Numbered from the stretch's first letter, positions 12,590-35,156 are shown. The stretch is 43,831 bases of DNA from Candidatus Microgenomates bacterium (GCA_016199065.1 JACQHK010000047.1:1-43831); one strand, 5' to 3'. Made by a program: numbers and translations. The notes: generated from the letters alone by a model not told the origin.

Positions 12590-12684
12590 CTTACATTTTA
12601 ATTTTTAGTCTAATAAGCCTTATAAACCATATTAGACTTAGTATAAGATGAAAATCAAAAATGATTCAATCGGAAGAGAAGATC

Positions 12685-13929: not shown

Positions 13930-13970
13930 AAGCCTCTATTTTATATTTTTTGATTCAAACAGACAATAAC

Positions 13971-15743: not shown

Positions 15744-15747
15744 AGCA

Positions 15748-15767
15748 GCCGCATTATAACATGCGGC
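15748..15767 (-). promoter_or_regulatory. extended -10 (TGtTATAAT) of dnaG embedded in inverted repeat GCCGCAT-N6-ATGCGGC
   Basis: -10 at 15758-15753, 9 nt from the ATG; the 7-bp arms flank and overlap it. Confidence 0.55.
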
Positions 15768-15781
15768 CAGAATGAGTTTGA

Positions 15782-16975: not shown

Positions 16976-17058
16976 ACGCTTATCAATTTCTTTAATCGTA
17001 TTTTACCCCACTTCAACAATTATTTCCCATTCTATTTCTTAATATTGTCAGTATATTT

Positions 17059-17664
17059 TTATGTAACCTTTTCCAGATTGATAACGATATGTTTACAAAA
17101 CCATAAAGAATTGACATATTGATACTTTACTGTCGGTCTCAAACCCAAATCCTCAATTATTTCCTCCCACTGATTAAGTCTCAAATAATTATAGGGCAGA
17201 CTTATACCATATGGTTTATTTCCGATATAGTCAGAAACTTTCAACGCCAGAAAGTCGAAACGATTATCCCAATAATGATCTTTTATCAAAACGTTTTTCC
17301 GAGCGACCCTTTTTGCCTCTCTCAACAACTCATCGGGTTTCAAATCGTGGTGTAAAACATCAATAATTAGAACAGAATCGAATGAATTATCTTTAAAAGG
17401 AAGTCTTTTTCCGTCATACTGATAGGTTTTTATGTACTGTTTTGTTTGCAAAACGGTATCTATCCCAACAAACTTCACGCCGGGAAGCCTGTTGGACATC
17501 AAATAGGCAAGACTCCCATCGGAACATCCAAAATCAAGAACACTACGGCTTCCCCTCAAATACGGTACCAGTTTTTTCACCAAGTCTGTTTTTCTCCTGG
17601 GAAATCCCACTCTTTCGTTATGCTGACGAAGTAAGTACAGAATGGGTGTTTGGAGATTAATCAT
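17059..17664 (-). CDS. class I SAM-dependent methyltransferase
   Basis: VLDFGCSDG, LPFKDNSFD, DVLHH. Confidence 0.9.
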   Translation of the reverse strand: MINLQTPILYLLRQHNERVGFPRRKTDLVKKLVPYLRGSRSVLDFGCSDGSLAYLMSNRLPGVKFVGIDTVLQTKQYIKTYQYDGKRLPFKDNSFDSVLIIDVLHHDLKPDELLREAKRVARKNVLIKDHYWDNRFDFLALKVSDYIGNKPYGISLPYNYLRLNQWEEIIEDLGLRPTVKYQYVNSLWFCKHIVINLEKVT

Positions 17665-18760
17665 AAGTTATTATTTTTTCTGATGATTCTCTCATTTTTT
17701 CCAAAATTTTCTTTGCTTCTTTTTCATCAGCAAATCTGGGTTGTGCATAGTCTTCAATAATCACCGGGTAAAAGCGTACAGATTCTAAATATTTATCGTT
17801 AAAAGTATAAACTCCTACCACTCCCTCTCTGGTTTCCCGAGACCACATCTGGTCGAAAACAAAATTGCCGTGGGCGTAGGTAATTAATTTATCTTTATAA
17901 ATTTCGACACCCTGTACCCAATGAGGATGATTACCGATAATCAGATCCGCTCCTAAGTCGATGGCCTTTTGCCCTAATTCTCTTTGCCTGTCTGATGGAT
18001 CATAGACATATTCTACCCCCCAATGAAACTGCACAATCAGAAAATCAACTTTTGGCCTTAACTGCTTAATTTCTTTTTCCATTATTCCCATATCTGCCCA
18101 AGAGACTCCTTGTTCTTCGGCACCAATATCGTTGTATCCTAAAAAGCCAAACTTTTTATCGTTAACGGTTAATATCGCCGGTGAATTATTACCGGTAACA
18201 CTGATGCTGTTTTTTTGTAAAATTTCTTGGGTTTCTTTTACACCCTCTAGACGATGGTTTCCCGTGTGATTGTTGGCTAAATTCACAATATCCACCCCGG
18301 AAAAAATTAAACCCTCCACGCTTCTTCCATCACCGCAAAAAATCATTCCTTCCTGAGTTGTAGGACAATCTTTTAACAGGGGTGTTTCCAGATTAGTAAA
18401 AGTCAGGTCACCTGATTTGAGTAATCCAACTGTTTTTTCAAAGGGAAAGGTAAAGTTATTTTTACTCACCATTTTATAATTTACCGTTCTGGCAGGAAGC
18501 ACGTCTCCGGTGGCAACTAAAATATATTTTCCTTCTTCTTTTTGCGGCAGGACCTGAGGGTCCTGGTAGGAAAAAATTTCTTCAGGGGTAAAGTCTTTAA
18601 TGTTTTGATAATCCTGTGGTTTTGAGGTTACCACAATTTTTGCAGGAGAAAAAATATTCAATTGTCTCTCTTGTAAGAGTTGACTTTTAAAAAAATTAGC
18701 AGAATAAATTACAATTATCACTACCAGCAAAACCGGAATGAGTAAGAATCCTTTTTTCAT
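17657..18760 (-). CDS. CapA/PGA_cap family metallophosphoesterase
   Basis: TGDV, NLE, NLANNH, HWGVEY, GNHPHWVQ, GNFVFDQ. Confidence 0.92.
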   Translation of the reverse strand: MKKGFLLIPVLLVVIIVIYSANFFKSQLLQERQLNIFSPAKIVVTSKPQDYQNIKDFTPEEIFSYQDPQVLPQKEEGKYILVATGDVLPARTVNYKMVSKNNFTFPFEKTVGLLKSGDLTFTNLETPLLKDCPTTQEGMIFCGDGRSVEGLIFSGVDIVNLANNHTGNHRLEGVKETQEILQKNSISVTGNNSPAILTVNDKKFGFLGYNDIGAEEQGVSWADMGIMEKEIKQLRPKVDFLIVQFHWGVEYVYDPSDRQRELGQKAIDLGADLIIGNHPHWVQGVEIYKDKLITYAHGNFVFDQMWSRETREGVVGVYTFNDKYLESVRFYPVIIEDYAQPRFADEKEAKKILEKMRESSEKIITYD

Positions 18761-20424: not shown

Positions 20425-21054
20425 TTATTTATAGATCACCATTAAATGATCGCTGGATTGGGCAGCATTGATCGACCAGGCGGGTAATAATTTTTCCCAG
20501 GGAATTTTATATCGGGTGTCTTTTTTGTCACGATCAGGGTTTATTACGAAAGCGTTTTCTTCGTCATAACCTTCAATAATATAATAGTGTCCGTTGTGCC
20601 AGTTCTTCCAATAAGTATTTAACGAAGCAGTGTTGGCAGAAATAAAAACCGGATTTTTCTTATCAAGCCAGGATTGCACACGACTGATTTTGGGCTGTTC
20701 CCAGATTAATTCTCCACCTTTTTCTACGTAATTTTTACAGGTTTGAAAGGTAGATTTATGCCCAGGAGAAAGCTTAATCTTGCGGAAATAATCAAGTGTA
20801 ATTCTGGTACCGAAGGGTAAATTTAAGGAAGCAAAAAGAGGAAGGTGTAAAGTGTACGCAGTTGCTTTGTAACCTTTTTCCATCGCCAACACCGCCAGGT
20901 CCGTTGAATAAGTACCAAAACTATGCATCTTTACTTTTTTGGCAAGTTCTTTCTCAGTAACTTTTTCTCCGTAAAAACCAAGGATCATCCGCAAAACTGC
21001 CACACCGCAAGTCAGACTGCGTTCCTGTTCAAAAAAGGGAACGTTGAGAATCAT
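20425..21054 (-). CDS. C39-like cysteine peptidase
   Basis: VPFFEQ...TCG, GHY.II.GYD, NP. Confidence 0.8.
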   Translation of the reverse strand: MILNVPFFEQERSLTCGVAVLRMILGFYGEKVTEKELAKKVKMHSFGTYSTDLAVLAMEKGYKATAYTLHLPLFASLNLPFGTRITLDYFRKIKLSPGHKSTFQTCKNYVEKGGELIWEQPKISRVQSWLDKKNPVFISANTASLNTYWKNWHNGHYYIIEGYDEENAFVINPDRDKKDTRYKIPWEKLLPAWSINAAQSSDHLMVIYK

Positions 21055-21057
21055 AAA

Positions 21058-22431
21058 TTACTTGTTCTTTGCCACAATCTTGATTTGGGTTACTTCGGCA
21101 AAACCGTATTTTCCGTGTTCTCTGCCGAAACCAGAGTTTTTGTATCCCCCGAAGGGATTAAAGGGCATAATGTAGTTGACCCCGTTCACACTCACCATTC
21201 CCGCTTCGAGAGCAGAAGAAACTCGGGTGGCTTTTTCTTTATCTTTAGTAAAAACATAAGAACCCAAACCATAAGCCGTACCGTTGGCCAAGGCCACCGC
21301 TTCTTCTTCTGTATTAAATTTTACAATCGGCAAAACCGGCCCGAAAACTTCCTCGTTCCAGATCCTCATGTCTTTGGTCACACCGGTTATCACCGTGGGT
21401 TCAAAAAAAGCACCTCCCAATTTTTTCTCCAAAGAATGTCCGCCCGTTTCAATTTTGGCACCCTGCACAAAAGCGTCCTTAACTTGTTCAAGAAGTAAAT
21501 CGAGTTGCCTTTTGGCCACCAAGGGACCAATCTGCGTTTCTTTATCATCGGCTTTCCCGATTTTTTTAGAACTAAAAATCTTGGTTACTTTTTTAACCAC
21601 TTCGTCAAAAACTTCTTCCCCAACAATCAATCTTTTTAACCCGTCGCAACACTGACCCGCGTTTAATAATCTCTGCTCACACACCCCGCTGGTTGCCTGA
21701 TCCAAATCGGCATCGCTAAAAATTATTCCCGGGGCAGAACCACCGAGTTCCATCACCGCCTTGATAAATTTCCTGCCCGCGGTTTCATACAAATATTTTC
21801 CGGTTTTGGTACTGCCCGTAAAGGCAATCATATTAATGTTGTCATTAACCAGAAGTTTCCCAACTTCACCATTTCCATAAACTTCGTTAAAAACTCCCGT
21901 GGGCAGATGGTGGTTTAACACGTACTCGATAAATTTTCCAGACAGTGGGCATTCTTCCGAGTGTTTAAAAACCAAGGTGTTGCCGGCGACCAAACTTTGC
22001 AATCCTCCCCAAACAAAATTAGCAAAGGGGAAATTCCAGGGAACAATCACTGCTGCCACACCGATAGGTTCATAAAAAACCTGGTGAATTTCTGTGTCGT
22101 TTTCAAAAGTGGTTTCGGGGGATAAATATTTTTCGGCGTTGTCGAAATACCAATTCGCGTAATCCATCGTGCCGTCCACGTCAATCAAAGCTTCCGACAA
22201 AGGCATTCCCATTTCGCGGCTTTCCAGAAGCGCCAATTCTTTTTTCCTCTCCAAAAACTCACCAAAAGCTTTTCTTAACATCTCCACCCTTTTTGCTACT
22301 CCTAATTCTCTCCATTCTTTTCTCATCTGTTGCGCGAGTGCTACTTTTTGCGAAACTTTTTCTTTGGTCGATACAACCACTTCTCCGAGAAGTTCATAAG
22401 TTGAGGGATTTATGGATTTTAGGGTTTGCAT
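21058..22431 (-). CDS. NAD(P)-dependent aldehyde dehydrogenase (succinate-semialdehyde-dehydrogenase-like)
   Basis: PWNFP, FTGS, ELGG, NAGQCC, EEVFGP, PFGGYK.SG.GREHG. Confidence 0.95.
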   Translation of the reverse strand: MQTLKSINPSTYELLGEVVVSTKEKVSQKVALAQQMRKEWRELGVAKRVEMLRKAFGEFLERKKELALLESREMGMPLSEALIDVDGTMDYANWYFDNAEKYLSPETTFENDTEIHQVFYEPIGVAAVIVPWNFPFANFVWGGLQSLVAGNTLVFKHSEECPLSGKFIEYVLNHHLPTGVFNEVYGNGEVGKLLVNDNINMIAFTGSTKTGKYLYETAGRKFIKAVMELGGSAPGIIFSDADLDQATSGVCEQRLLNAGQCCDGLKRLIVGEEVFDEVVKKVTKIFSSKKIGKADDKETQIGPLVAKRQLDLLLEQVKDAFVQGAKIETGGHSLEKKLGGAFFEPTVITGVTKDMRIWNEEVFGPVLPIVKFNTEEEAVALANGTAYGLGSYVFTKDKEKATRVSSALEAGMVSVNGVNYIMPFNPFGGYKNSGFGREHGKYGFAEVTQIKIVAKNK

Positions 22432-22469
22432 GTGATGAAATTATAGCAAAAAATTTATGAGATGATCTG

Positions 22470-23636
22470 TTAAGAATTTTGGTTGATAATATTTTTTGCG
22501 CGCTGGTATATTTGATCAAATGTAATAATCTCTGGTCTAAACAAATTTTTTCTAAAATATTCGAAGCACGATAATTTATCGGTATTACCAATTTCCCCGT
22601 TTTCATCTGTAAATTCGTCTCTCATGCTCCCCATCAGTAAAAAGCATTTTGGTTCGAAGCAAAATACCTCCTCTCCTGTTCTATTACCATTGTCATCCTT
22701 TATCTCTATTAGTTCAGTAATATTACCAACTGTTATTCTTATATATTGTTGACACTGGGCAATTGCTCCAGTAAGTTCATCGCTTACTTGCCAAACATTA
22801 CTTATTCTATACATTTTATCATTCATCAATCTCTTTTTGTGTGTTTTTATTTCGACAATATTAAAAAACTGTGCAATCCCCAAAGTTTTCAATATACCAT
22901 CAGGTTTTTTCCCATGACTTAAAAAATCGTTTCCTTTTAATACTTGTTGTAGTTGTTCTTTCTTGATTGCGGCATTGAATACATACTCAAGACCATAACC
23001 GAAAATCCATTTATTGTCTTCAAAAAATTGTTGCCAAACATCTTCGTCTCTTTGCTTTTTCCACTCACTTTTTATTTTAGCAAAAGCGTTCGCGTCTTCT
23101 AATAAATTTTTAAAAAAATCAAGTGATTTTCTTTTTTTCGAAATATTTCCAATATCTCCCATATTAATTAAACCCCTGGACTCTGCTAGCTCGGCAATAA
23201 TTTTAAACCCTTTCTCATCAGACAAAATCGTTGTTAAATGCTTCTTTAATTTTGTCTCGTCCTTAATCACGCCCGCATCTAATATAAGACTTCTATTTGA
23301 TACTGAGGTAAGATCTAGAGAGGAAAAGATTTGAAGCAAATTCAATACACCTTTAAATCCTAATGTAGATAAATTAATTTTCTCAACCAATTTTCCGTTT
23401 GATAGTTTTGATATTTGAACCCCCGTAATTGCTTCATCGTGCGCGATGTAAGTAAGACGAACTTCTATTTTGGGAGATATAACCAGTCCTACGTCATAAT
23501 AAAGATCTTCTTCATTAAAAACAGTACTTACATATTTACCTTCACCCTTAGGAAAATCTGCTACGTAAATTTTCCCAATTTTTTTATTAGCTATGATAGT
23601 AGACTCGTCTGCTTGAAAAAAATCAAAAATTCCCAT
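22470..23636 (-). CDS. sduA: Shedu anti-phage nuclease (DUF4263 family)
   Basis: EDVWQQFFEDNKWIFG, PD...VEIKT, ELTGAIAQCQQY, EIITFDQI: PD-(D/E)xK core with the Shedu QxxxY motif; AT-rich. Confidence 0.85.
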   Translation of the reverse strand: MGIFDFFQADESTIIANKKIGKIYVADFPKGEGKYVSTVFNEEDLYYDVGLVISPKIEVRLTYIAHDEAITGVQISKLSNGKLVEKINLSTLGFKGVLNLLQIFSSLDLTSVSNRSLILDAGVIKDETKLKKHLTTILSDEKGFKIIAELAESRGLINMGDIGNISKKRKSLDFFKNLLEDANAFAKIKSEWKKQRDEDVWQQFFEDNKWIFGYGLEYVFNAAIKKEQLQQVLKGNDFLSHGKKPDGILKTLGIAQFFNIVEIKTHKKRLMNDKMYRISNVWQVSDELTGAIAQCQQYIRITVGNITELIEIKDDNGNRTGEEVFCFEPKCFLLMGSMRDEFTDENGEIGNTDKLSCFEYFRKNLFRPEIITFDQIYQRAKNIINQNS

Positions 23637-23703
23637 TGTTTTTGGTTAAAGCATGTTAATATAGGCATATTTTACACCAAGGAAATTAGTAAGCAAAAAA
23701 TAT

Positions 23704-23742
23704 TTATCTCACCTTAAACAATTCTCTATCAGGATAAACCGA
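23704..23742 (-). repeat. degenerate copy 2 of the last 13 codons of the A2M gene
   Basis: TCGGTTTATCCTGATAGAGAATTGTTTAAGGTGAGATAA vs A2M end TCCGGCCACTCCGACGGAGGATGGTTTGAGGTGAGATAG; 26/39 by eye, 21/27 in the 3' part. Confidence 0.6.
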
Positions 23743-23762
23743 ACCCAAAGATTCCGTACGTA

Positions 23763-23796
23763 AGTAATTCCCACACTCCAGTGCGCGAGAATTACT
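23763..23796. repeat. 34-bp hairpin repeat, copy B
   Basis: AGTAATTCCCACACTCCAGTGCGCGAGAATTACT; 33/34 identical to 25901-25934. Confidence 0.92.
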
Positions 23797-23838
23797 GACA
23801 AACAAGTTTTCTCCCAATTAGTCCCACATTTCCAACTA

Positions 23839-24723
23839 TTAACATTTCGGAAAATTTATTTGCTCTAATGTAAAATTAAAGTTTTCGCTTTCATCTTTGA
23901 GCCTTTTGACAGAAGTAAAGCAATAATCAAGATTATTATCCACAAGAATTGCATTTCTCCCTAAACGAACCGCAGCAATCGCTGTTGTTCCCGAACCCCC
24001 AAAAGGATCCACTATGGTACCACCATTAGGTGATAATAGTTTAATAAAAAAAGATGGCAATCCCACTGGGAAAACGGCGGGGTGATTATAATTTTTTCCA
24101 ACAAGAGGAAGCACTATTACGTTTGAAGGCAACACGTCTTTTTTTCCAATCCATCTCGAAAGGTCTCTACCGAATCCGCTGTTATTTTCGGAATTATGCC
24201 TGGCGAGATCTTTTCCATTTAATTTTGAGAGACGGGATTCCGCCCAATCACCTAGCGATATTTTTACAGCGTTCTGATTGATATAAGGTTTTGTAGTTTT
24301 AGCTAAATGAAAACAATACTCCCAACCATCCCTTAATCGTGTTGGCCAATAACCCGGCATTGGATTTGTTTTGTACCAAATATAATCTTCAATCGCGAAC
24401 CATCCCAGTTCTGACAGTTTTTCGATAGTTTTCCAAACGTATCTATTTCTTACTCCATTTTCTACCTTATCTTTTATGTTAATTACCAAACTACCATTTG
24501 GTTTTAGAATATGGAAAAATGCATTGTGAAAGCTTGAAAACCATTCTACAAATTCGTCCGGGCTTATACTATCATAATGCTTCTTGCGAGCATCTGCGTA
24601 TGGTGGAGAAGTTATAATTAAATCAGCTATTTGACCTAATGGAGGCAAAACACTTCTGCTATCGCCAAAGATAATATTACACTTTACTTTTGTCCTCTTT
24701 ATACTTTTAGACTTGTTAACCAT
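23839..24723 (-). CDS. beta-class amino DNA methyltransferase (probably N4-cytosine)
   Basis: TSPPY (motif IV) precedes HPAVFP and DPFGGSGTT (motif I). Confidence 0.93.
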   Translation of the reverse strand: MVNKSKSIKRTKVKCNIIFGDSRSVLPPLGQIADLIITSPPYADARKKHYDSISPDEFVEWFSSFHNAFFHILKPNGSLVINIKDKVENGVRNRYVWKTIEKLSELGWFAIEDYIWYKTNPMPGYWPTRLRDGWEYCFHLAKTTKPYINQNAVKISLGDWAESRLSKLNGKDLARHNSENNSGFGRDLSRWIGKKDVLPSNVIVLPLVGKNYNHPAVFPVGLPSFFIKLLSPNGGTIVDPFGGSGTTAIAAVRLGRNAILVDNNLDYCFTSVKRLKDESENFNFTLEQINFPKC

Positions 24724-24729
24724 TTTTAA

Positions 24730-25668
24730 CTAATTAGTAGCAATAAACTTCATAAATTTAATTTTATCTATCTTCCTTTCTTCGTTTAATAAATTAAGTT
24801 TTTTAAATCTTTCTTTTAATAAGAGTGAGCATTCTTTTCTGTTTTTCAACGTGTAAAATGGCAAATACTTGCTTACTAGAGACATTGACAATTTATATAT
24901 ATCAGTAGCCGGCCGACCTGTTATATATGGGAATAAAAATCCTGGTTCCCACGATTCACAGTTTGGAGAGTATGGTAGTCCTTGATTGTTTAATTTTATG
25001 TGTCTGCTTTCCTTATATTCTTTAACTTTCCCATTTGGAGGAGTCGCATAACCAAACACACAAATATATGGCCTTGTAACATTAATCTCTGATTTTGCAA
25101 TATTTTCTAGTCTTAAAATAACTCCTGGTATATCTTGTCCACCAACAGTATCTGATGATTTTTTTACTGATGCATATAATCTCAATCCCGAAGAATATTT
25201 TGGAGTTTTTAAATCAGCAACTAGATCACCTTCTCTTGACCCATCAAAAACCGCTTCGATATTTGAATTTTTTGCATTTGAGCTTATCCTCATCAACTCG
25301 ATGGCCAGATATTGATAAAAAACACCAATCTTCATTCTTTGACGTTGCATTTCGTGAGGAATTGCATCTAAATCAAATATCTCGTCGACTTCGCAAGAAG
25401 AATAAAAAAAGGGCGAAAGTATGGGGCAACTTCTTAGTTTCAAATGTTTTATACATAAATCAACGAGTTCTTTCGGGGAAGAATTAACTCGTCTAAGACT
25501 TCCTTTTTTGTCTGTTATTGTTCTCTTAAAAGCAATTTCTACCGCTACTAATACTTCCTTATCTGTTAATGGAAGGTCTTGTTTTGGAAATAGACCATGT
25601 GCTGACAAAAGAGTATCTCCTTCTCTGGGATATGGTTGTAATGTAAATTTATTTCTACTCGAAGGCAT
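24730..25668 (-). CDS. putative Type II restriction endonuclease
   Basis: 6 bp upstream of the MTase and co-oriented; EGDLVAD...ASVKKSSDT resembles a variant PD-(D/E)xK site; AT-rich. Confidence 0.65.
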   Translation of the reverse strand: MPSSRNKFTLQPYPREGDTLLSAHGLFPKQDLPLTDKEVLVAVEIAFKRTITDKKGSLRRVNSSPKELVDLCIKHLKLRSCPILSPFFYSSCEVDEIFDLDAIPHEMQRQRMKIGVFYQYLAIELMRISSNAKNSNIEAVFDGSREGDLVADLKTPKYSSGLRLYASVKKSSDTVGGQDIPGVILRLENIAKSEINVTRPYICVFGYATPPNGKVKEYKESRHIKLNNQGLPYSPNCESWEPGFLFPYITGRPATDIYKLSMSLVSKYLPFYTLKNRKECSLLLKERFKKLNLLNEERKIDKIKFMKFIATN

Positions 25669-25740
25669 TTATTTTTAATATACAAATTAAATAATTAAGT
25701 GAATTGCTAAAAATATATTCGTATTAAATTACTTCACAAG

Positions 25741-25764
25741 AAAAAAAGCAACATAGGCGATTGC
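25741..25764 (-). terminator. putative intrinsic terminator following A2M-end copy 1
   Basis: Minus strand GCAAT-cgcctat-GTTGC followed by 7 T; an overlapping hairpin lies just upstream (to ~25787). Confidence 0.45.
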
Positions 25765-25812
25765 CACCCACCTGCAAGGCGCGGTAGATTCATATCTGTA
25801 GAATAAACACCT

Positions 25813-25851
25813 CTATCTTACCTCAAACCATCCCCCATCAGAATTGCCAGA
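25813..25851 (-). repeat. copy 1 of the last 13 codons of the A2M gene (SGNSDGGWFEVR*)
   Basis: 32/39 nt identical to 25991-26029 (SGHSDGGWFEVR*); 6 of 7 differences at third codon positions. Confidence 0.88.
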
Positions 25852-25900
25852 ATCACACTGTCTGAAAAGATGAATATAAAACTATTAGCAATAAAAGTGA

Positions 25901-25934
25901 AGTAATTCCCACACTCCAGTGCGCGGGAATTACT
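25901..25934. repeat. 34-bp hairpin repeat, copy A
   Basis: AGTAATTCCC-ACACTCCAGTGCGC-GGGAATTACT; perfect 10-bp stem, extendable by G.U pairs on the minus strand. Confidence 0.92.
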
Positions 25935-25990
25935 GCAATAATTACTTCTACCTACGTGTTTTATAACGCCTGTATAAAAAATTAATTCCG

Positions 25991-28900
25991 CTATCTCACC
26001 TCAAACCATCCTCCGTCGGAGTGGCCGGAGACATCGGGAGTGTACATTTGATAGGCAGAGGCTGGCGGATGATGATAGCGGCCGGGAGTTGTGGCGCGGA
26101 CTCTGTAGGTAAATTCATAAACTCCCGCAGGCAAATAGTCTGCAAATAAAGACGTTCGATCGTCGTGATATTCTTTGTGTTCAAAATACAAATTCCGGTC
26201 GCCTTTTTCTTTCAATTTGGGTGACTTGGCCGACAAAACACTGGAAGTTTTGAGACTTTCATTGACTGATTCCAAACCGGCCGGCAGGATATCTTCAATC
26301 ACCACAAAATGCCGTTCTTCCGGAGCAACGATAATCAACCTAACCCAGGCTTCGGAATTTTCAGGAAGCGACCCGCTCGGCAAAATATTACCTTTACTAT
26401 CAACCAGTTCTCTTACCACCACCATTCCTTGCTCCAACGGTTTGATTTCAGTAAACGGCAGGAAATATTTTAAGTTGACGTTGTAATACAGATTTCCTTC
26501 TCCGCTTTTGGCAAAAGTCAGAGAGTTTTCTGTGCCGATTTTTAATTGCGTAATACCCAGTGTCAAATCCTCCACACGCAACAAATCTTCTTTAACAAAT
26601 TTTCCTTCTTTGATTGTTTTTCCGTTTAACGAAAATCGATAATCTTCATTTAATTTTTCGTCGCCTTTTAACAACAGTTGCGTTGCAATAGTTTTAATTA
26701 CTGCTGCAGTATCTCTCGTTGATGCCCAATGACCATCACGTCTGGTAGTCATTAAATAACGAATCACTTCCGAAATTAAGGGATTGTTTTTGTTGTAAGA
26801 CATAATTGATTCTAAGACCGCAGCGGTGGCTGTGGTATTGCTACCCATGTAATAACCATAGTTTGTTTGCTGTTCCTCCCAGTGAGTAGTGGTCGCAGTT
26901 TTTTTGGCTAAAGAAATTAATTCGTCATTAAGTTTTTTACCTCTCCCAGAAGCTGTAGGAATTGCACTCATTGCCACTGCCAGGTTAGCCCGTGATTCTA
27001 AACTCATCTCAAAACGTCTGGTATAAAGATTTGAAGTATATGATGCCAAATTTACCCCGCTGTCTTTTAAGACATAAAGAATAAATGCTTGGGTGTTTAA
27101 TGAAGGCGGCGTGACTGAAGAAAGATGCTGCACTAAATAATCCCTGGCTTTAGTCAAAGTCTGATCAGCGACGCTGAACTTGTCTTTTTTAGCTTCAGAA
27201 AGACCAAGGTAAGCATAGGCTGTTACAAACGGGTCGCTTTGCAGTTCCGGCCACCAACCCCAACCGCCATCGGCATGCTGCTGACTGTTTAATCTTTGTA
27301 CGCCATCGCTAATAATCATCGTTAATTCTTTGGCGCTGATTAAACCGCTTTTTTCAATACCGGCTTTCGTAAAAACCCGGTTGGCAAAAACCGCCGGCAG
27401 GAAACGGCTGGTAATTTGTTCAACGCAGTTATAGGGGTAGTCAATTAAATAAGTTAAGGCATTAATACTGGCTGCTCCTAAAGAAGGAGAAAGTGAAATT
27501 GCCGCTGACCCCTGAGTTTTATCAACATCGTTTGGCAAAAGAATTTTTTCTTCTTTATTACCCTGGGAATTTCCGGCTGTGGCAACCGTCTCGGGAACCG
27601 AGTAGGATTTGACCGGCAATTTAATTTCTACAACGTCGCGGGTCACACCATCGCTTCCCGCAACTGAAATTTTTATTTTTGCTTCTTTTACGTCCTGTGC
27701 TTGAGTCTTCCAGGTTAATTTTGCCTGTGCGCCGTCAGCTAAAACTTGCTGTTTGGTGTTTGGTTCGTTGATCTTTATACCTTCAGTCTCGATTTTTACT
27801 GTCGTGTTTTGCTCTTCACCGCTGGTGTTGGCCACAATGGCTCCCAACTGGGCTTCGTCACCAACGGATAAAAATCTCGGTAAGAATGGTCTGATTAATA
27901 AATCCCTGCTGACAATCACTTCAGAAACTGCCGATCCAACCGCTGTGTCTTTGGAATTGGCAATGGCTCCCAGTCTCCAGGTTGTCAAATTGTCCGGCAG
28001 TTTAATTTGTACTGAGATTTTGCCGTTTTGATCAGTCGTTAAATTAGGATTCCAATAGGTGGTATCAGGGAAATTGACGCGGGAAGTATCATTTCCTCCG
28101 CCTTTTTGGTTATGAACATAAACGTCCTTGGCAAAATACGTGTGGTATTTTTCCGTTTCTAAATTGTATACGTCAAAGTCTTTTCCAAAAACATATTCCT
28201 TGGAAGTCACTTTTACTGGTTGATTATTTTTGTCTAATAAATAATCGCCTACCTGAATTTCTCCGGCAGTTTTCCACTCTCCGTTAACCAGCATCCTATG
28301 AACGGCAGTCACTTCGATTTCTCCGTTTAATATTAAATAGTCGTTGACCAAGTGTTTAAAAGTCTTGATAACTTTGGCTTCTACAAGTTTTGAGGAATTT
28401 TCCGATTCTCTGGTCAGAATCACGTCTCCTGTTTTAACGTCTTTAATAGATTTATAACTGTAATCTTTCATTAAGATCGGTGTTTCTGCAGTAAAACACC
28501 CGCCGCTGCCGCCCTTGGCTCCCAGGTTTAAATTGGCATTAATGCGGTCTAAAGAAATTGTTAAGAGTTGTGCCGTATCTACGTCTAAATTACGCGGCTG
28601 ATAAAAAGTTTTGTAAATATCGGCTAGTTCTATTTGTGCCAAATCCCAAACCGCCTTATCAACCAAACCAACTGCTAACTGGGTAGAAACCGGATGGCCT
28701 AATAGGTCCTTGGTTTGAATGGTAGCCTTTAAGGTTTCTTTAGGTTTATAGCGTTTTTTGTCAGTGGTGATAGCCACCTCAACTTGCTGTTTCTTGTCTG
28801 TTACTTTGATTTCGGTGTATCCCATCTTAAACTCCGGCGGTTTTTTAAGGTCGTTACCGCCCCTGACTAAAACTGCACTGATAAACGCATTGGGAGCAAA

Positions 28901-31900
28901 CTTGGGAGGAATAGCAATCGGGAAATTATTTGACGTGTCTGACGTATCAACCACCTGATAATCAAGAACATTCCCCCGCTCTGCAGTTAATAAAGTCTTT
29001 GCTGAATCAGTCGCAAAGGGCGTAGCCACGAAAACGGAAACTGTCTCGCCTACCAAATAATCTCTTTTGTCGGTAACCAGAACTATCCGGTCGTTGTTTT
29101 CCCTGGCCGTAGAAAATCCGTAGCCTGAGACCCACAGAAAACTACCACTAACGTTTTGTTTACCGTTCTTGTCAGAAACTCGGGCAACGACTTTAACAGT
29201 TCCCCCCTCAACAGGAGTAAAAGAGGCCTTTGCATAACCTAATCTATCAGTCGTAACTCTGGTGCTGATTAAAAGAGTATCTGTGGGTTTGGCAACGTAA
29301 TAAAATTCTCCGTCGTCAGTATTTTGTTCACGAACCGTTTCCCAGGTACGTTTGTAAAAGGAAACTTCAACAGGGGTCTCGGGAACTTCCAGACCTTTAA
29401 GATCAACCGTGACAATTTCTACCTGCACTTCTTTACCGCTTTGGTTAGCATACGAAACCGGATGAATACCGGCATAAATTTCTCCTTTATGAACTGTAAA
29501 ATCTGTCGAGGCGGCAATTGACTGATTACTGATGTCATTAACCACTGCTTCAACCCTCATTTTTTGACTGGTTTTATATTTGGCAATATCCAAAGGCAGA
29601 GAAAGCTCTAAATCACCTTTGGTGTTAGTAATACCCTTACCCTGAGTTACTTCTGTTCCGGAATAATAACTGGAACCAGAATAGTACCACCAGGGCCTGG
29701 ACCAATAAGAATCCGGGTCGCCAAATTCATATCGCCAGTCTTTGTCCCATCTAAAAGAATAATCCTCTGTTTGTAAGGTCCAGGTCACCGGAGCTTCAGT
29801 CACTGGTGCACCAAAATAATAAGAGGCGTTAATTGCGGCTTGGGCAATTTCACCTTGGGTATAGGCTGGTTTATTGGTAGTGACGGAAACTGCTAATTCA
29901 GGTTTACGATATTCTTCGACCTGAAACTGTTGAATAGATCCGTTACCTTTAAAATCCACACCCAATTCGTAATTACCCAAGCTGGCATTTTTGCTTAAAA
30001 CAAACTCACTCCAGAAAGAACCAAAGGAGTCGATCGGCAGGACCTGGGTAAAAATTGCCCGGTTTTGCGCATCGGTAATTTTTACGGTAACTTTTTCTCC
30101 GGGTTCCAGGTTTTGGTAAGCTCCGTCATTATCTTTTTTAATGACACCTTTAAAATAAACTTTTTGACCCGGACGGTAAATCGGGCGGTCCAATGTCAGA
30201 TAACTCTTGTAATTTTTTTCGGCATAATAATCGTTTCGTTCATTCGGATCATAATAAGAAGGTAATCCGAAATCATAACGGTTTATACCTTCGCTCCAGG
30301 CACTGGCAGCAACAACCGCATCATCATTGTTTTTACCAAACACAAAGAGATCGTTTTTCTGCAACAGATTTACTTCTTTTTGCCAAACACCATCCTGGTT
30401 AGAAACTCCCTCGGCTAATTTATTGTTGAACATATCTGCCAGCTCCAGTTTCATTCCGGGAATAACCTGCGCCGTTGACTGGTTAACAGACCAGGTAAAA
30501 ATCTGGTTATTGCTTTTTTTTACAGTTAAGGCTGATTTACTGACAATCATAACCATATTGTCATGAGCACCCTGGGGAATTTTTACCTCTAAAAAGTAAA
30601 ATCCCGCGGGAAGATTTTGGCTGTTTTGATCGGTTACTTTAGTTACCACCTGCACCGGAGTATTTAGATCGGCTTCGTAATTTTCGCTCCAGGAACGTAC
30701 TTTGGTTAATTTAGAAGTGTCGTAGTCCTGCCAATTGGCACAACCTACGTTTTGTCTTCCCTGACAATCATTACCATATCTTCTCCGATAAAGTTCCAAA
30801 AGATTTTCCCTGCTTAACCGATACAGCGAATAATCGACACGGTTAGTATTTACCACTTGTGTCACCACCCTGGGAATAATTTCCTGATTAAAAGAGGCAA
30901 AATAAGTTCCTGAGGGATAAATGCTGACGGCCGGTTTGTAGGGAGCGGTGGTAAAGGAAAAAGTGTAGGGCTTTCCGAGCGCTACTCCATATTGATCTTT
31001 AACGTTAGCACCGATTGTCACTTGGTATTCTTTCGAGGGTCCGAAATACGAACTTACGTAAAGTGAATTTTGGTTATTGTAGCTCGAAAAAGAAAAGTAA
31101 GGCTTGGTCGCAGGCTTGGGAATAATTGTCACATTATCGGCAAAGGAGTCCTCATCCATGGGAGTTTTAAAATAAACCTGCAGATTATAAAGTTCACCCG
31201 CAGTTGTTTTGGCTTTATTCTTAGGCTCTGTAGAGATTACTCCGGGAAAATCGGTGGTGGTAAAATTCCAATAATAATCATCTTCCAGACCATTCGGCCC
31301 GTCTGTGCTTTGGGCACCGTTTTTAACTACTGCTTCGTAATTTTCCAATCTGGCCAAAGGAGTTAACGGATAAAAACCCACCACCTTACCATTTACGACT
31401 ACTTTTCCGGGTATTTCCGTTTTGTTTTTATCCAAAACTTTAAAGGAATTAACCAAAGAGGAATACTCCATGTTCTGGGTAAAAAAGGCCGCAATTGAAG
31501 CAACTGGCGAAGCAAATCTTTCTCCTAAAGACGGTGAAACGTCTTCTACTCGGGGACGTGCACTGGAAAATTGCCACTGATAATTTTGTTTTAAGACACC
31601 TCCGTCTTGTGATTTAAGTCCGGAAAAAACAGTAACCTGGTAGGTCGTGGCTTTCTTAAATGGCAGGCTCGGCCGAAATTGATAAGAAGTAGTTCCCAAC
31701 CAACGTCCTTGACCAACGAGCGGCGGATTAATTTCGAAAGCCGGTTGTTTAACAGCACTATTGGTAGCTGTTGTTAAGGGTATCATCGGCCTATCGAAAA
31801 CCACCGTCACCGGAGTTAAATCTTCCAAGGCCTCGTTTTGCGGAGCTGCCAGAATAACCTTTGGCTCTCCGAGAGTCGAAAAATCAATGTTTTTAAAACC

Positions 31901-32653
31901 CACCATGGGTATAAAAAACTTCGAAAGAACCAGACCGTCAAATCCTACCTGGTAATGATTATCTCTTTGTAGAGGCTCTTGCGGAGTAAAAATTAGTTTC
32001 TGCTCACCCTCCCAGGAAAAACTGCCCGGAATCGGTGGTTTAATCCGAAAACTTTTTTCCGCTGTTTGTTTAATAACTTCTTTGTCAAAAATAACTTCGA
32101 TTTTGGTTTCTAAGGGATTTTCCAGGCTATTTTGACCGGGAAAACTCGTTAACACAACGGGTGGGTGAAAAAACGGACCGAACTTGAGCAATAAAAAAAT
32201 TATGAGAACGAGAAACAGAGGTAACCGGGCGATTCGCCATTTTTCTCCGGGAGTAGACGTTTGAAATTTGTTCCCCCAGGAAGATATTTTTTGGGTAAAA
32301 ACGTTTAAAAAGTAAAAAAATTTATCAATGACCAGGATTAAGTATTTTTTAACAAAGTCAGCAATCACCGACAAAAACTGTGGCTTTGTAAGAACTACAA
32401 CTATCACTGTACCGATAGCCAAAATGCCCACAATTAAGGCCTGCATGGTTAAAACCGGTCTTATCACCAACTGCTGTTGGATAAAGGTGTAAGCTTTCCA
32501 CAAAACGGTAATGCCGATTAAAACTATGGCCACCCAAAAGAAAATTTGATTTCGTAAGCGCCGGATTTTACTCAAAAGAGAAGCGGGATAAGATGACGAA
32601 GGAGGTAAGTCCCCGGCAGAAGGATTATTATTTAAGGAATCGTTTTCTGGCAC
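25991..32653 (-). CDS. membrane-anchored bacterial alpha-2-macroglobulin with N-terminal Ig-like (Big_5/SbsA-like) repeats and a Hint domain in the bait region
   Basis: DRPIYRPGQ (MG2), FQVEEYRKPE, R.NFPDT..W.P, LPDNLTTWR, thioester YPYNCVEQ (27416-27427), DGGWGWW, RATTPGRY..P; ~3 N-terminal TM segments; downstream of pbpC. Confidence 0.95.
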   Translation of the reverse strand: MPENDSLNNNPSAGDLPPSSSYPASLLSKIRRLRNQIFFWVAIVLIGITVLWKAYTFIQQQLVIRPVLTMQALIVGILAIGTVIVVVLTKPQFLSVIADFVKKYLILVIDKFFYFLNVFTQKISSWGNKFQTSTPGEKWRIARLPLFLVLIIFLLLKFGPFFHPPVVLTSFPGQNSLENPLETKIEVIFDKEVIKQTAEKSFRIKPPIPGSFSWEGEQKLIFTPQEPLQRDNHYQVGFDGLVLSKFFIPMVGFKNIDFSTLGEPKVILAAPQNEALEDLTPVTVVFDRPMIPLTTATNSAVKQPAFEINPPLVGQGRWLGTTSYQFRPSLPFKKATTYQVTVFSGLKSQDGGVLKQNYQWQFSSARPRVEDVSPSLGERFASPVASIAAFFTQNMEYSSLVNSFKVLDKNKTEIPGKVVVNGKVVGFYPLTPLARLENYEAVVKNGAQSTDGPNGLEDDYYWNFTTTDFPGVISTEPKNKAKTTAGELYNLQVYFKTPMDEDSFADNVTIIPKPATKPYFSFSSYNNQNSLYVSSYFGPSKEYQVTIGANVKDQYGVALGKPYTFSFTTAPYKPAVSIYPSGTYFASFNQEIIPRVVTQVVNTNRVDYSLYRLSRENLLELYRRRYGNDCQGRQNVGCANWQDYDTSKLTKVRSWSENYEADLNTPVQVVTKVTDQNSQNLPAGFYFLEVKIPQGAHDNMVMIVSKSALTVKKSNNQIFTWSVNQSTAQVIPGMKLELADMFNNKLAEGVSNQDGVWQKEVNLLQKNDLFVFGKNNDDAVVAASAWSEGINRYDFGLPSYYDPNERNDYYAEKNYKSYLTLDRPIYRPGQKVYFKGVIKKDNDGAYQNLEPGEKVTVKITDAQNRAIFTQVLPIDSFGSFWSEFVLSKNASLGNYELGVDFKGNGSIQQFQVEEYRKPELAVSVTTNKPAYTQGEIAQAAINASYYFGAPVTEAPVTWTLQTEDYSFRWDKDWRYEFGDPDSYWSRPWWYYSGSSYYSGTEVTQGKGITNTKGDLELSLPLDIAKYKTSQKMRVEAVVNDISNQSIAASTDFTVHKGEIYAGIHPVSYANQSGKEVQVEIVTVDLKGLEVPETPVEVSFYKRTWETVREQNTDDGEFYYVAKPTDTLLISTRVTTDRLGYAKASFTPVEGGTVKVVARVSDKNGKQNVSGSFLWVSGYGFSTARENNDRIVLVTDKRDYLVGETVSVFVATPFATDSAKTLLTAERGNVLDYQVVDTSDTSNNFPIAIPPKFAPNAFISAVLVRGGNDLKKPPEFKMGYTEIKVTDKKQQVEVAITTDKKRYKPKETLKATIQTKDLLGHPVSTQLAVGLVDKAVWDLAQIELADIYKTFYQPRNLDVDTAQLLTISLDRINANLNLGAKGGSGGCFTAETPILMKDYSYKSIKDVKTGDVILTRESENSSKLVEAKVIKTFKHLVNDYLILNGEIEVTAVHRMLVNGEWKTAGEIQVGDYLLDKNNQPVKVTSKEYVFGKDFDVYNLETEKYHTYFAKDVYVHNQKGGGNDTSRVNFPDTTYWNPNLTTDQNGKISVQIKLPDNLTTWRLGAIANSKDTAVGSAVSEVIVSRDLLIRPFLPRFLSVGDEAQLGAIVANTSGEEQNTTVKIETEGIKINEPNTKQQVLADGAQAKLTWKTQAQDVKEAKIKISVAGSDGVTRDVVEIKLPVKSYSVPETVATAGNSQGNKEEKILLPNDVDKTQGSAAISLSPSLGAASINALTYLIDYPYNCVEQITSRFLPAVFANRVFTKAGIEKSGLISAKELTMIISDGVQRLNSQQHADGGWGWWPELQSDPFVTAYAYLGLSEAKKDKFSVADQTLTKARDYLVQHLSSVTPPSLNTQAFILYVLKDSGVNLASYTSNLYTRRFEMSLESRANLAVAMSAIPTASGRGKKLNDELISLAKKTATTTHWEEQQTNYGYYMGSNTTATAAVLESIMSYNKNNPLISEVIRYLMTTRRDGHWASTRDTAAVIKTIATQLLLKGDEKLNEDYRFSLNGKTIKEGKFVKEDLLRVEDLTLGITQLKIGTENSLTFAKSGEGNLYYNVNLKYFLPFTEIKPLEQGMVVVRELVDSKGNILPSGSLPENSEAWVRLIIVAPEERHFVVIEDILPAGLESVNESLKTSSVLSAKSPKLKEKGDRNLYFEHKEYHDDRTSLFADYLPAGVYEFTYRVRATTPGRYHHPPASAYQMYTPDVSGHSDGGWFEVR
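28109..28498 (-). other. 130-aa Hint domain (mini-intein/BIL/pretoxin-HINT type), A2M residues 1386-1515
   Basis: Starts CFTAETPILM, block B EVTAVH, block F VYNLETEKYHTYFA, ends VHN; +1 residue is Gln; no endonuclease domain. Confidence 0.93.
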
Positions 32654-32735: not shown

Positions 32736-35156
32736 TCAGAAACCTTCTTTGTAGTCAACGACCGAAAATTCTACATCCTCACTTTCCACCTTTTCACCGT
32801 TTCTCAATTGACCAACAGCTTTTACCCTGTGTTTCCCCTTTACTAATTTCCAGGAAGTACTAAAAGGAAAAGTCTTTGTTTCGGTATATTTCTTACCATT
32901 TACCAACCAGGTAACATTAGTAACAGCAGATGATACATTGGCTTCAAAAACAACGGCCTGATCGCTAACCAGCCAGGGAGCATTTTCAAAAACGGCCTTG
33001 GCCTTTGGATTGGTAATCGAGAGAAACGCTAAATCTCCCAAGCTGTCATCACTCTCGCAGAAGGGAGAATAATTATTGGGAATAAAAGGCTGGTCATTTT
33101 GTACAGCCCAACTGTAAACTTCGGAAGGATAATCGACCAGAACTTTTTCTGTCACAAATTCATTCGGACAGGAATCGTTGGCCAGCAGGTTGTTGCGTAA
33201 ATCGATTTTGACTTTTTTATGCAGTGTAGATATTACTCTGGGTTCAGTTTTATTAATAAATTTTTCAAAATATCGCTCAGGACAAAGATCATCGTAGAGC
33301 TGACCCGATAATTTACAAATCTCGATTTCTTTTATTCCTTCCGGTTTTATAAATTGTTCTTTCGGTTTGCCTTTTAAGAATTCTTCAAAAAACTGGTTCC
33401 ATAAAGGAGCCGCGCCTACCACACCGGTAATCTGTTTCATTGGATGATTGTCGTTATTCCCCATCCAAACTCCTACAGTAAAAGAAGGGGTGTATCCTAC
33501 TGTCCAGTTATCATGCCAGTCCGTAGTCGTTCCTGTTTTAACTGCTGCAGGACGGGACAAAACCAGCGGATTCTTTTCGCCAAAACCCAAAATCCTGGCT
33601 TTCGGATCAGATAAGATATCCGTAATTAAATAGGCGATTTGTTGATTTTGTTCTTCAAAAACCGGACGCGGTTTTTCTCTTTTATGTTGAAAAATAGTTT
33701 TTTCTTGGTCGGTGGTAATTTTTTCTATGGCATATGGAGGAAGAAATTGCCCTCCTCTGGCAAAGGAGGCATAAACATTTGTCAGATCAAGCAAAGTCAC
33801 TTCTCCTCCTCCCAGGGTAATAGCCAGATCATATCTTTCTTTTTGGGTAAAGGTGGTAATACCTAACTTCTCTGCCGTCTGTAAAAATTTTTCTAAGCCG
33901 ATGCGGTGCAAGATCTCCACAGCCGGAAGATTTAAGGAAGATGCTAAGGCTTCCCTGGCCAAAACCAACCCATGGTATCTGCCGTCATAATTATTGGGAG
34001 TAAATCCTTCGCCCTTTTTGGTTTTATAAACGGAAGGTACGTCATAAATTAAAGTTGCCGGAGTAAAACCCTGGCTAAAAGCCGCAGCATAAGTAACGGG
34101 TTTTAGTGCCGATCCGGGTTGGCGCAGAGCCGTTGTTAAATTTACTTCACCGGAATTAGTAGCGTCAAAATAATCAATTCCTCCCAGCATGTTGAGAATT
34201 TCACCCGTTTTGTTATTGATTAACACCAAAGAGCCATTACTTAAGTTGTGTTGTGTTTTTAACCGTTCAATCCAAAGTCGTGCCAAGTCCTGGCTCAATT
34301 TAAAAACCGGATAATCAAGAGTGGTATAAACATTAAAACCGTTCGTGTTTTTTATTCCCATTTTGTCTATTTCTTCTAATACGAAATGAACGAAATGGGG
34401 GGCCTTTATATTATTATTAATAGGGGTAAAAACCAGAGGTTCAAGTTTTGCTTCTGTCACTTCTTCTTTTTTTAGCAGGTCGTTTTCGTATAACAGATTC
34501 AAAACATATTCCTGACGTTTCTTGGCTGCGGAAAAGTTTGTGTAAGGATTTCTTTTCTCCGGTGACGAAATCAGTCCGGCCAAAAATGCGCTTTCGGCGA
34601 CCGATAATTGACTGGCGTCTTTTCCGAAATATAAAATCGAAGCCGCCTGAACACCGTAGGTTAGATTACCAAAATACATTTGATTGAGATATTTAGTCAA
34701 AATATCTTTTTTCGAATGTGTCACAGAAATTCTTAAGGCCATCAGAATTTCTCGAATCTTGCGCAGAAAACTCCGTTTTGAGATTTTTCCGGGAGAAATA
34801 ACCGAGGCCCTGGCTAACTGTTGGGTAATCGTACTGGCACCGCTGACAATTTTTCCTTCTTTTAGATTTAAATAAAGAGATCGGGTGATGGCAGAAAAAT
34901 CCACGCCCGGATTGTGCCAAAAACTTTGATCCTCAGAAACAATTACAGCCTCGATTAAGTGTTGAGGAAATCTCTCATAAGTTACTGTTTGCTTACTGCC
35001 GATTATCCCAGCTTGCTCATAAAGTAAGATATTATTTCTGTCCCAGATTTTAATCGTTCCTGACTTGTCAAAGTTAGGATAAGTCCAGAAATAAAGAAAA
35101 ATTAATAGAAGAAAAAATAGAAGAGGGATTTTGATCCGGAAAAATTTGGTAAGCAT
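32736..35156 (-). CDS. pbpC: penicillin-binding protein 1C (transglycosylase/transpeptidase with C-terminal Ig-like domain)
   Basis: EDQSF..PGVD, GASTITQQLAR, RKIRE; GSALKP (SxxK), SLN, KTGT; canonical partner of bacterial A2M. Confidence 0.9.
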   Translation of the reverse strand: MLTKFFRIKIPLLFFLLLIFLYFWTYPNFDKSGTIKIWDRNNILLYEQAGIIGSKQTVTYERFPQHLIEAVIVSEDQSFWHNPGVDFSAITRSLYLNLKEGKIVSGASTITQQLARASVISPGKISKRSFLRKIREILMALRISVTHSKKDILTKYLNQMYFGNLTYGVQAASILYFGKDASQLSVAESAFLAGLISSPEKRNPYTNFSAAKKRQEYVLNLLYENDLLKKEEVTEAKLEPLVFTPINNNIKAPHFVHFVLEEIDKMGIKNTNGFNVYTTLDYPVFKLSQDLARLWIERLKTQHNLSNGSLVLINNKTGEILNMLGGIDYFDATNSGEVNLTTALRQPGSALKPVTYAAAFSQGFTPATLIYDVPSVYKTKKGEGFTPNNYDGRYHGLVLAREALASSLNLPAVEILHRIGLEKFLQTAEKLGITTFTQKERYDLAITLGGGEVTLLDLTNVYASFARGGQFLPPYAIEKITTDQEKTIFQHKREKPRPVFEEQNQQIAYLITDILSDPKARILGFGEKNPLVLSRPAAVKTGTTTDWHDNWTVGYTPSFTVGVWMGNNDNHPMKQITGVVGAAPLWNQFFEEFLKGKPKEQFIKPEGIKEIEICKLSGQLYDDLCPERYFEKFINKTEPRVISTLHKKVKIDLRNNLLANDSCPNEFVTEKVLVDYPSEVYSWAVQNDQPFIPNNYSPFCESDDSLGDLAFLSITNPKAKAVFENAPWLVSDQAVVFEANVSSAVTNVTWLVNGKKYTETKTFPFSTSWKLVKGKHRVKAVGQLRNGEKVESEDVEFSVVDYKEGF

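Follow-up and report, generated by a model that had tools for sequence, protein, structure and literature searches.

The window analysed here is the 43,831-nt contig C40 (JACQHK010000047.1) of the draft genome GCA_016199065.1, a metagenome-assembled genome of a Candidatus Microgenomates bacterium, a tiny groundwater organism (0.89 Mb in 62 contigs, 95% completeness). It contains a gene of the alpha-2-macroglobulin family (A2M) and, behind the 3′ end of that gene, an array of defence genes, hairpins and displaced copies of the A2M gene end. The genes of the array are all called as open reading frames (ORFs) on the − strand, and the features are given below in transcription order.

32736–35156, − strand: class A penicillin-binding protein (PBP), PBP1C-like, preceding A2M (PF00912, PF00905, PF06832)
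25991–32653, − strand: A2M gene, 2220 aa, the target gene (ORF call)
25991–26029, − strand: E0, the working last 12 codons and stop codon of A2M, SGHSDGGWFEVR and stop
25900–25935, − strand: hairpin A, 54 nt past the A2M stop codon and 48 nt ahead of E1
25813–25851, − strand: E1, a displaced A2M end copy, SGNSDGGWFEVR and stop, 32/39 identical to E0
25753–25771, − strand: terminator-like stem and T run after E1 (consensus scan only)
24730–25668, − strand: candidate type II restriction endonuclease (REase), 312 aa (AlphaFold model and fold match)
23839–24723, − strand: N6/N4 DNA methyltransferase (MTase), type II (PF01555, E 7e-39; PADLOC MTase_II, E 4e-42)
23762–23797, − strand: hairpin B, 41 nt past the MTase stop codon and 19 nt ahead of E2
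23704–23742, − strand: E2, an older displaced A2M end copy, SVYPDRELFKVR and stop, 26/39 identical to E0
22470–23636, − strand: Shedu (SduA) defence gene (PF14082, E 1e-24; PADLOC SduA, E 1e-82)
21058–22431, − strand: aldehyde dehydrogenase (ALDH), the far-side flank (PF00171, E 3e-139)

Homologues of the A2M gene match PF00207, PF07678 and PF17973 and are named as members of the YfaS/A2M family. Beyond ALDH, the gene order continues with a C39 peptidase and Fur. The GC content is 0.30–0.39 in the bins starting within 22400–25999, compared with 0.42–0.475 in the adjoining A2M and ALDH bins, and Rfam gave no match across positions 21000–27000 at E values up to 1.

The three gene ends E0, E1 and E2 lie in direct order behind A2M. 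When the 39-mer of E0 was slid over 1,780,790 genome positions on both strands, only E0 itself (39/39), E1 (32/39) and E2 (26/39) reached at least 24/39, the best remaining position being at 23/39. Since no fourth place in the genome attains this level, E2 is no chance match, and the two copies described in the initial annotation are confirmed. E1 and E2 begin at a common codon, and thus share one 5′ boundary, and both retain the reading frame and the stop codon. A2M is open through to its stop codon, and its end has the motif PDVSGHSxGGW, which closes the A2M genes of relatives; E1 and E2 therefore derive from an A2M end. In addition, E1 has the lineage-specific ending of this genome, GGWFEVR and stop; related A2M ends that were read in frame continue as GGWL or GEWL in 15 of 15 cases, with that of locus L058 read out of frame. 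The homology is confined to a segment of ~39–50 nt at the gene ends.

The pairwise identities are 32 of 39 for E0 and E1, 27 for E1 and E2, and 26 for E0 and E2, in accordance with the earlier observation that decay grows with distance from the gene. With E0 and E1 as the closest pair and E2 as the outgroup, these values fit what serial displacement would predict. Specifically, six of the seven differences between E0 and E1 fall at third codon positions. The third-position excess (binomial P 0.007 if E1 alone drifted neutrally) hints, in a suggestive rather than decisive way, that E1 may formerly have been a working gene end. The 13 differences of E2 are divided 4/3/6 among the three codon positions, the pattern expected of neutral decay.

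To place these copies in the context of the genome, the ends of 787 ORFs were scanned for copies at 27/39 or better within 6 kb downstream, with an upstream control. End copies were obtained for four contigs. The one on contig C2 is a low-complexity case, that on contig C13 terminates in a stop codon and lies 979 nt downstream, and those on contig C26 belong to a tandem paralogue family and are present in the upstream control too. A2M is the only one of the 787 ORFs with an end copy placeable in intergenic DNA just downstream. The paralogues of contig C26 (− strand, gene ends at 10660–18147 in strand coordinates) have in common a conserved C-terminal end with the sequence G(L/V)DYVIWVNN.

Each displaced end is preceded by a hairpin. 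Hairpins A and B are direct repeats identical at 35 of 36 positions, as near-identical as first described, and form the closest pair among nine uninterrupted copies in the genome (other pairs agree at 21–32). A 32-nt hairpin pattern with up to three mismatches has two matches in the window versus none in 100 shuffles. On the − strand, hairpin A forms a 14-pair stem, G-T pairs included, and then a T-rich tail. That two of the 11 hairpin copies fall within 50 nt of the two displaced ends cannot be chance, and no model considered here accounts fully for how tightly and repeatedly a hairpin is paired with a gene end.

The cargo of the array consists of the REase candidate, the MTase and Shedu, with the REase candidate and the MTase between E1 and E2 and Shedu after E2. 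The cargo assignments agree with the initial annotation, those of the MTase and Shedu through the domain and PADLOC matches listed above. The 312-aa ORF has no family model match in Pfam, NCBIfam or PADLOC. It has at least 246 homologues at 50–65% identity, called ‘hypothetical’ wherever they are named, and the two with a named taxon, among the matches listed, are from Bacteroidales and Nitrospirae. The AlphaFold model of the ORF (pLDDT 90) has EcoO109I as its best fold match (Foldseek E 7e-5, TM 0.52–0.60), supporting its prediction as a member of an unmodelled EcoO109I-like endonuclease family and a candidate type II REase. Since this predicted fold stands beside a PF01555 MTase, the assignment of the two genes as a putative type II restriction-modification (RM) pair is likewise supported. 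A weak profile match to the TraI relaxase (E 0.0026) was dropped for the EcoO109I fold match.

The shared 5′ boundary, the graded decay and the separated, low-GC defence cargo together are the signature of repeated insertion with end replacement. We tentatively favour a series of integrations by foreign DNA, each into the final ~40 bp of A2M and each replacing the gene end, although our confidence in this account stays a little below even. An incoming segment would bring its own A2M end, which would become the working end, and the former end would be pushed downstream; E2 would be the oldest end, E1 would come next, and E0 would be the end now in use. The type II RM pair would have come with the segment that E1 and E2 delimit. 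Shedu, situated beyond E2 and also low in GC, is therefore probably an earlier arrival, its far boundary presumably lost. Between E0 and E1, the 178-nt unit could be a remnant without cargo or else an element of very small size. As the array contains no recombinase gene, the units would either have decayed, in the manner of cis-mobilizable elements (CIMEs), or have been moved in trans. The hairpin ahead of each displaced end would then mark the distal end of an inserted unit, though it is not unit-specific, and in the array it most likely serves as a terminator-like element or one that binds a protein. Within this account we infer that recombination was site-specific and took place inside the repeat, in what order the units arrived, and whatever part the hairpin plays. 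Of the repeated accretion at A2M that had been proposed, the insertion signature with end replacement holds, and the hairpin as a dedicated site does not.

To our knowledge, almost nothing is known about how ultra-small bacteria of the candidate phyla radiation (CPR) acquire phage defence. If the locus does represent site-specific insertion with no resident integrase, it would offer a docking site usable to find more cargo in metagenomes, and it would widen the accretion/CIME model to take in a new phylum as well as units of cassette size.

Accretion behind a target gene has precedents. The classic case of accretion at a 3′ end is said to be that of ICESt1 and ICESt3 at fda in Streptococcus thermophilus. 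Decay to integrase-less CIMEs followed by accretion is described in PMC5704250. As in that description, successive units are delimited by direct repeats of the 3′ end of the target, the new end keeps the gene intact, and units devoid of integrase and transfer functions persist between the repeats (PMC5704250). Here, in contrast, no integrase-bearing relative was found in this genome or at the related loci compared, unit sizes are much lower, at 0.18 and 2.1 kb, the host belongs to the CPR, a host-wide palindrome stands at each junction, and excision is hypothetical. A second parallel is provided by the Dehalococcoides ssrA islands, which are arranged in tandem behind one gene with 3′-end direct repeats, each of these immediately preceded by a conserved motif derived from the element; some of the islands have no integration module and are discussed as CIMEs (PMC3146451). 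Tandem units behind one gene, 3′-end direct repeats and a conserved motif upstream of each are shared with the A2M array. The Dehalococcoides islands differ in having a tmRNA target, a 20 bp repeat and, in many, a serine-recombinase module (dsiB), whereas here the target is protein-coding, the repeat is ~39 bp and there is no recombinase. The most economical account, by analogy with these cases, would be that the array is an instance of the known accretion/CIME pattern, real and unusual, with units that may have been mobile.

Two further arrangements resemble the array in part. Integron cassette arrays and the A2M array have in common promoter-poor cargo units, each of which closes with an imperfect palindrome that folds, and the lack of a recombinase inside the units. 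Integron cassettes are not known to carry copies of a neighbouring gene's end, and here there is no IntI and no attI, and the hairpin occurs outside the array too. Defence hotspots of the Escherichia coli and Pseudomonas pan-genomes lie between core genes, are defined by many-strain comparison and are not known to be marked by displaced gene ends. The A2M locus shares with them the stacking of RM and Shedu between two non-defence genes without mobile-element genes, and differs in that displaced gene ends mark the site and that it is known from one genome.

Several observations weigh against serial integration at A2M, and some of them at the same time favour an explanation without any dedicated system, in which foreign DNA would have entered by transformation, homology-facilitated illegitimate recombination or unequal crossing-over, with a local duplication of hairpin and gene end as a by-product, after which the copies decayed. 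We regard this explanation as possible but doubtful. In the array and the other scanned ORFs (20 of the 34 ORFs of the window, array included) there is no integrase, transposase or recombinase, in agreement with the absence of an integrase in cis noted initially, and the lack of a recombinase nearby is what an origin without a system would leave. Across the genome, PF00239 (serine recombinase) has no match, and the tyrosine recombinases of PF00589 are limited to two Xer-like proteins on contigs C39 and C14, which an integron-integrase model scores far under its cut-off. The search for a trans-acting recombinase that had been suggested thus yielded these two proteins, together with a truncated gene on contig C5 described below, and no serine recombinase. 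The units measure 178 nt and ~2.1 kb, which is very small, and the genome-wide scan with E0 finds no gene-end copy after Shedu. The third-position excess of E1 becomes marginal (P 0.06) if E0 was under selection while E1 drifted, a point in favour of an origin without a system. The hairpins are 97% identical, compared with 69% for the ends beside them, and the hairpin-end module was therefore possibly not inherited in one piece. The hairpin and gene-end regions were also compared with dif, and had only local matches of 12–22 columns to a 1.1 kb non-coding locus beside xer (no shuffle control), so that a dif likeness was set aside.

Other A2M loci weigh in the same direction. ALDH, Shedu, the RM pair and the hairpin are all absent downstream of the 16 closest metagenome A2M loci (65–68% identity), the single match of the hairpin model there having an E value of 0.33. 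End copies at 26/39 or better occur at 0 of 80 related metagenome A2M loci (best 25/39, not above background), and an integrase-bearing relative at the site was found neither in the genome nor at these 80 loci. The relatives compared at A2M are distant, none being a close relative of this genome, which makes these negatives weak. An origin with no system is furthermore consistent with the lack of a second example in the genome: duplicated flanks (at least 24/30 within 8 kb) are found only at hairpin A and at 0 of the 9 hairpin copies unlinked to A2M, and at 0 of 9 hairpin copies in the genomes G002 and G003, where the loci are short. The spacers around the hairpins (s0–s4) are unique sequence with no further copy in the genome, which points the same way. 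Such an origin, however, is at odds with the single 5′ boundary of both displaced ends, since illegitimate joints are unlikely to have arisen twice, independently, at one codon. Duplication of a unit would, moreover, make E1 and E2 sisters, yet E0 and E1 (32/39) are closer than E1 and E2 (27/39).

The initial annotation had proposed the hairpin as a cassette-specific recombination site, and hence a possibly undescribed cassette system. A profile built from seven copies finds ~11 copies of the hairpin in the genome, including A and B. The others are at the following places.

Contig C48, 92: hairpin copy
Contig C22, 13301: hairpin copy
Contig C18, 8535 and 9180: hairpin copies
Contig C39, 1834: hairpin copy
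Contig C6, 20822 and 23377: hairpin copies
Contig C35, 3957: hairpin copy
Contig C8, 3675: hairpin copy

These nine copies are unlinked to A2M and mostly adjoin housekeeping genes, namely those for NIF3, tyrosyl-, histidyl- and arginyl-tRNA synthetases (TyrRS, HisRS and ArgRS), an M23 peptidase and RecO, and a gene after FtsZ. Copies occur in both orientations. The pair on contig C18 brackets a YerC/TrpR-like helix-turn-helix (HTH) gene (PF01371, TIGR02531), and the pair on contig C6 brackets a three-gene block. In G002 and G003, which belong to a sister genus, orthologues of the YerC/TrpR-like gene stand in the same place before TyrRS, each bracketed by two hairpins of a variant peculiar to the species, in which the stems differ and the loop is similar. 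ArgRS, too, has a hairpin before it both in G002 and in this genome (L125:6885–6924; L010:1834–1874). With the hairpin spread genome-wide, conserved in position at two loci in sister genera and without flank duplication at the nine other copies, the claim of a dedicated cassette system that recombines at the hairpin is therefore weakened, largely along the lines that the initial annotation had itself named as refuting, a genome-wide REP unlinked to A2M ends.

The hairpin family has a conserved secondary structure. In an alignment of 18 copies from three genomes, the 14-pair stem has 91.3% of its cells paired; 7 of the 14 pairs have changed on both sides, none of 500 shuffles is as good, and slid controls give 30–48%. 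Because two of the stem pairs read as G-U on one of the strands, that strand folds into the better hairpin. An explanation of the hairpin purely through RNA or through the replication strand finds no support, since the better-pairing strand is not always sense to its neighbours and is on the G-rich strand in 4 of 11 copies. TrpR-like homologues are present in 29 of 41 relatives, this genome counted, with up to seven matches per genome, and at 17 of 27 TrpR-like loci (within L147–L176) the two flanks have in common a stretch peculiar to the genome, in most cases plainly palindromic, and better than any of 200 shuffles. Judged from these comparisons of sequence, the hairpin is this lineage's variant of a widespread arrangement in Microgenomates of an HTH gene with its own palindrome. 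This particular hairpin sequence is almost exclusive to the genome: within the class, one other genome among 300 has it, and it recurs at two loci in a species-representative collection, where a Candidatus Gottesmanbacteria draft is the only named genome with a related hairpin; viral contigs gave 0 matches to it. A literature search on YerC, YecD and TrpR-related proteins gave nothing relevant among the papers listed.

These properties bear on an explanation centred on the hairpin, in which blocks between direct palindromes would be gained and lost by hairpin recombination, with a YerC/TrpR-like protein or a RAYT-like HUH enzyme as the factor acting in trans and the gene ends as mere passengers. 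That A and B are the closest pair of uninterrupted copies, lie in direct orientation and bracket the RM pair would agree with it, as would the bracketed TrpR-like gene and three-gene block, the genome-specific stretches on both flanks of TrpR-like loci, and a stem kept through compensatory changes. A possible enzyme is suggested by the only match of the genome to PF01797, a Y1 HUH gene truncated by the end of contig C5 (L127:1285–1695, equal to C5:11118–11528), the 5′ part of this gene lying off the contig. This fragment has the motifs HFHFIL and YIHLNP, and of the models it scores best on that of the REP-associated tyrosine transposase (RAYT; REP, repetitive extragenic palindrome), NF047646, with 43.5 bits, below the cut-off of 80. 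Its 3′ flank, however, has no hairpin, and the HTH protein has no known catalytic domain. The TrpR-like gene with its brackets stands before TyrRS in three species of two genera, which argues that the unit has not been recently mobile, and the position before ArgRS is conserved too. Furthermore, no third hairpin closes the Shedu unit, and two gene-end copies with one boundary are left unaccounted for. We consider an explanation centred on the hairpin unlikely.

The hairpins resemble REP/RAYT systems and REPINs in being short lineage-specific extragenic palindromes that are repeated genome-wide and bracket a protein gene (PMC3116915, PMC3337134, PMC3733652). They differ in that the bracketed gene encodes a YerC/TrpR-like HTH protein rather than a Y1 HUH enzyme, that the copies are direct rather than inverted and that there are only ~11 of them. 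The tag GTAG or CGTC given for REPs in PMC3733652 does not head the element either, which starts AGTAA, the copies beginning (A)GTAAYTC.

A related proposal combines the two subjects: the hairpin of the TrpR-like HTH protein would spread and bracket blocks as a Microgenomates system of a protein and its own palindrome, and the A2M array would represent defence cassettes captured in trans at a gene end. We give this proposal slightly less credence still. The link of the hairpin to YerC/TrpR-like genes nevertheless provides a testable handle on the dispersed palindromes of Microgenomates.

Mis-joining of contigs of different organisms at the repeated hairpin, which a metagenome-assembled draft of 62 contigs and the lower GC of the RM and Shedu block than of its flanks could suggest, is very improbable, given that the three gene ends differ mutually and are thus no collapsed repeats, that the hairpin variant is specific to this genome, and that a 151-nt contig of read run X1, identical over 25849–25999, bridges hairpin A and a second short contig of similar low depth is identical inside the REase gene, both possibly from the assembly's own source sample and to that extent not independent support. 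In read runs X1 and X2 the organism is present as a few short contigs at depth 2–4, and over the parts that these cover, neither a joint at the array nor a circle junction is listed.

Returning to serial integration at A2M, we compared the locus with those of relatives. A2M is present in 6 of 41 relatives, this genome counted, and was not found in three genomes of the family (79–87% complete); the genomes and loci compared gave no empty site. An A2M allele ending in SGNSDGGWFEVR was found at 0 of 11 ends read, from 28 shorter homologues, the nearest of which (92% identity) stops before its end, and the gene-end pattern has 0 matches in viral contigs. Orthologues of ALDH at 52–56% identity are present in G001, G002 and G033. 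In G033, PBP homologues lie 5.5 kb from the ALDH orthologue, with a Y1 transposase gene and small genes between, which, as a single case, hints that the interval between PBP and ALDH may be variable between genomes. The PBP homologues at this locus (L124:56–11380) are two paralogues, and a 13-nt perfect palindrome directly follows the Y1 transposase gene.

A number of minor observations concern the hairpins outside the array. The bracketed YerC/TrpR-like HTH genes encode 147–180 aa, and in this genome the bracketed unit is contig C18:8535–9221 (L005:5536–6222). For the block bracketed on contig C6, Ldh_2 was not found in five relatives, and synteny breaks directly after FtsZ in 5 of 5. Three of the 11 hairpins are just upstream of aminoacyl-tRNA synthetases, 65 nt before TyrRS (L005:6182–6221), 24 nt before HisRS (L008:3957–4012) and before ArgRS domains, and such hairpins could constitute a small regulon of the TrpR-like protein. 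At L010:905–3643, a single 912-aa frame runs through a B3/4-domain part, the hairpin (codons ~310–323) and ArgRS, and would be either a gene fusion with the palindrome in frame or a chance open frame; in G002 the B3/4-domain and ArgRS genes are separate, with the hairpin between. A shared inner palindrome of 18 nt (GCCTGYCTGCGCAGGCAG) is inserted into the hairpins at L005:5536–5593 and L008:3957–4012, in each case precisely in the middle of the loop. In addition, two hairpin sub-variants stand back to back at L146:440–521 (contig C29 of G003), 2 nt apart and in opposite orientation, and one of them is nearer to the copy on contig C8 of this genome than to the main variant of G003.

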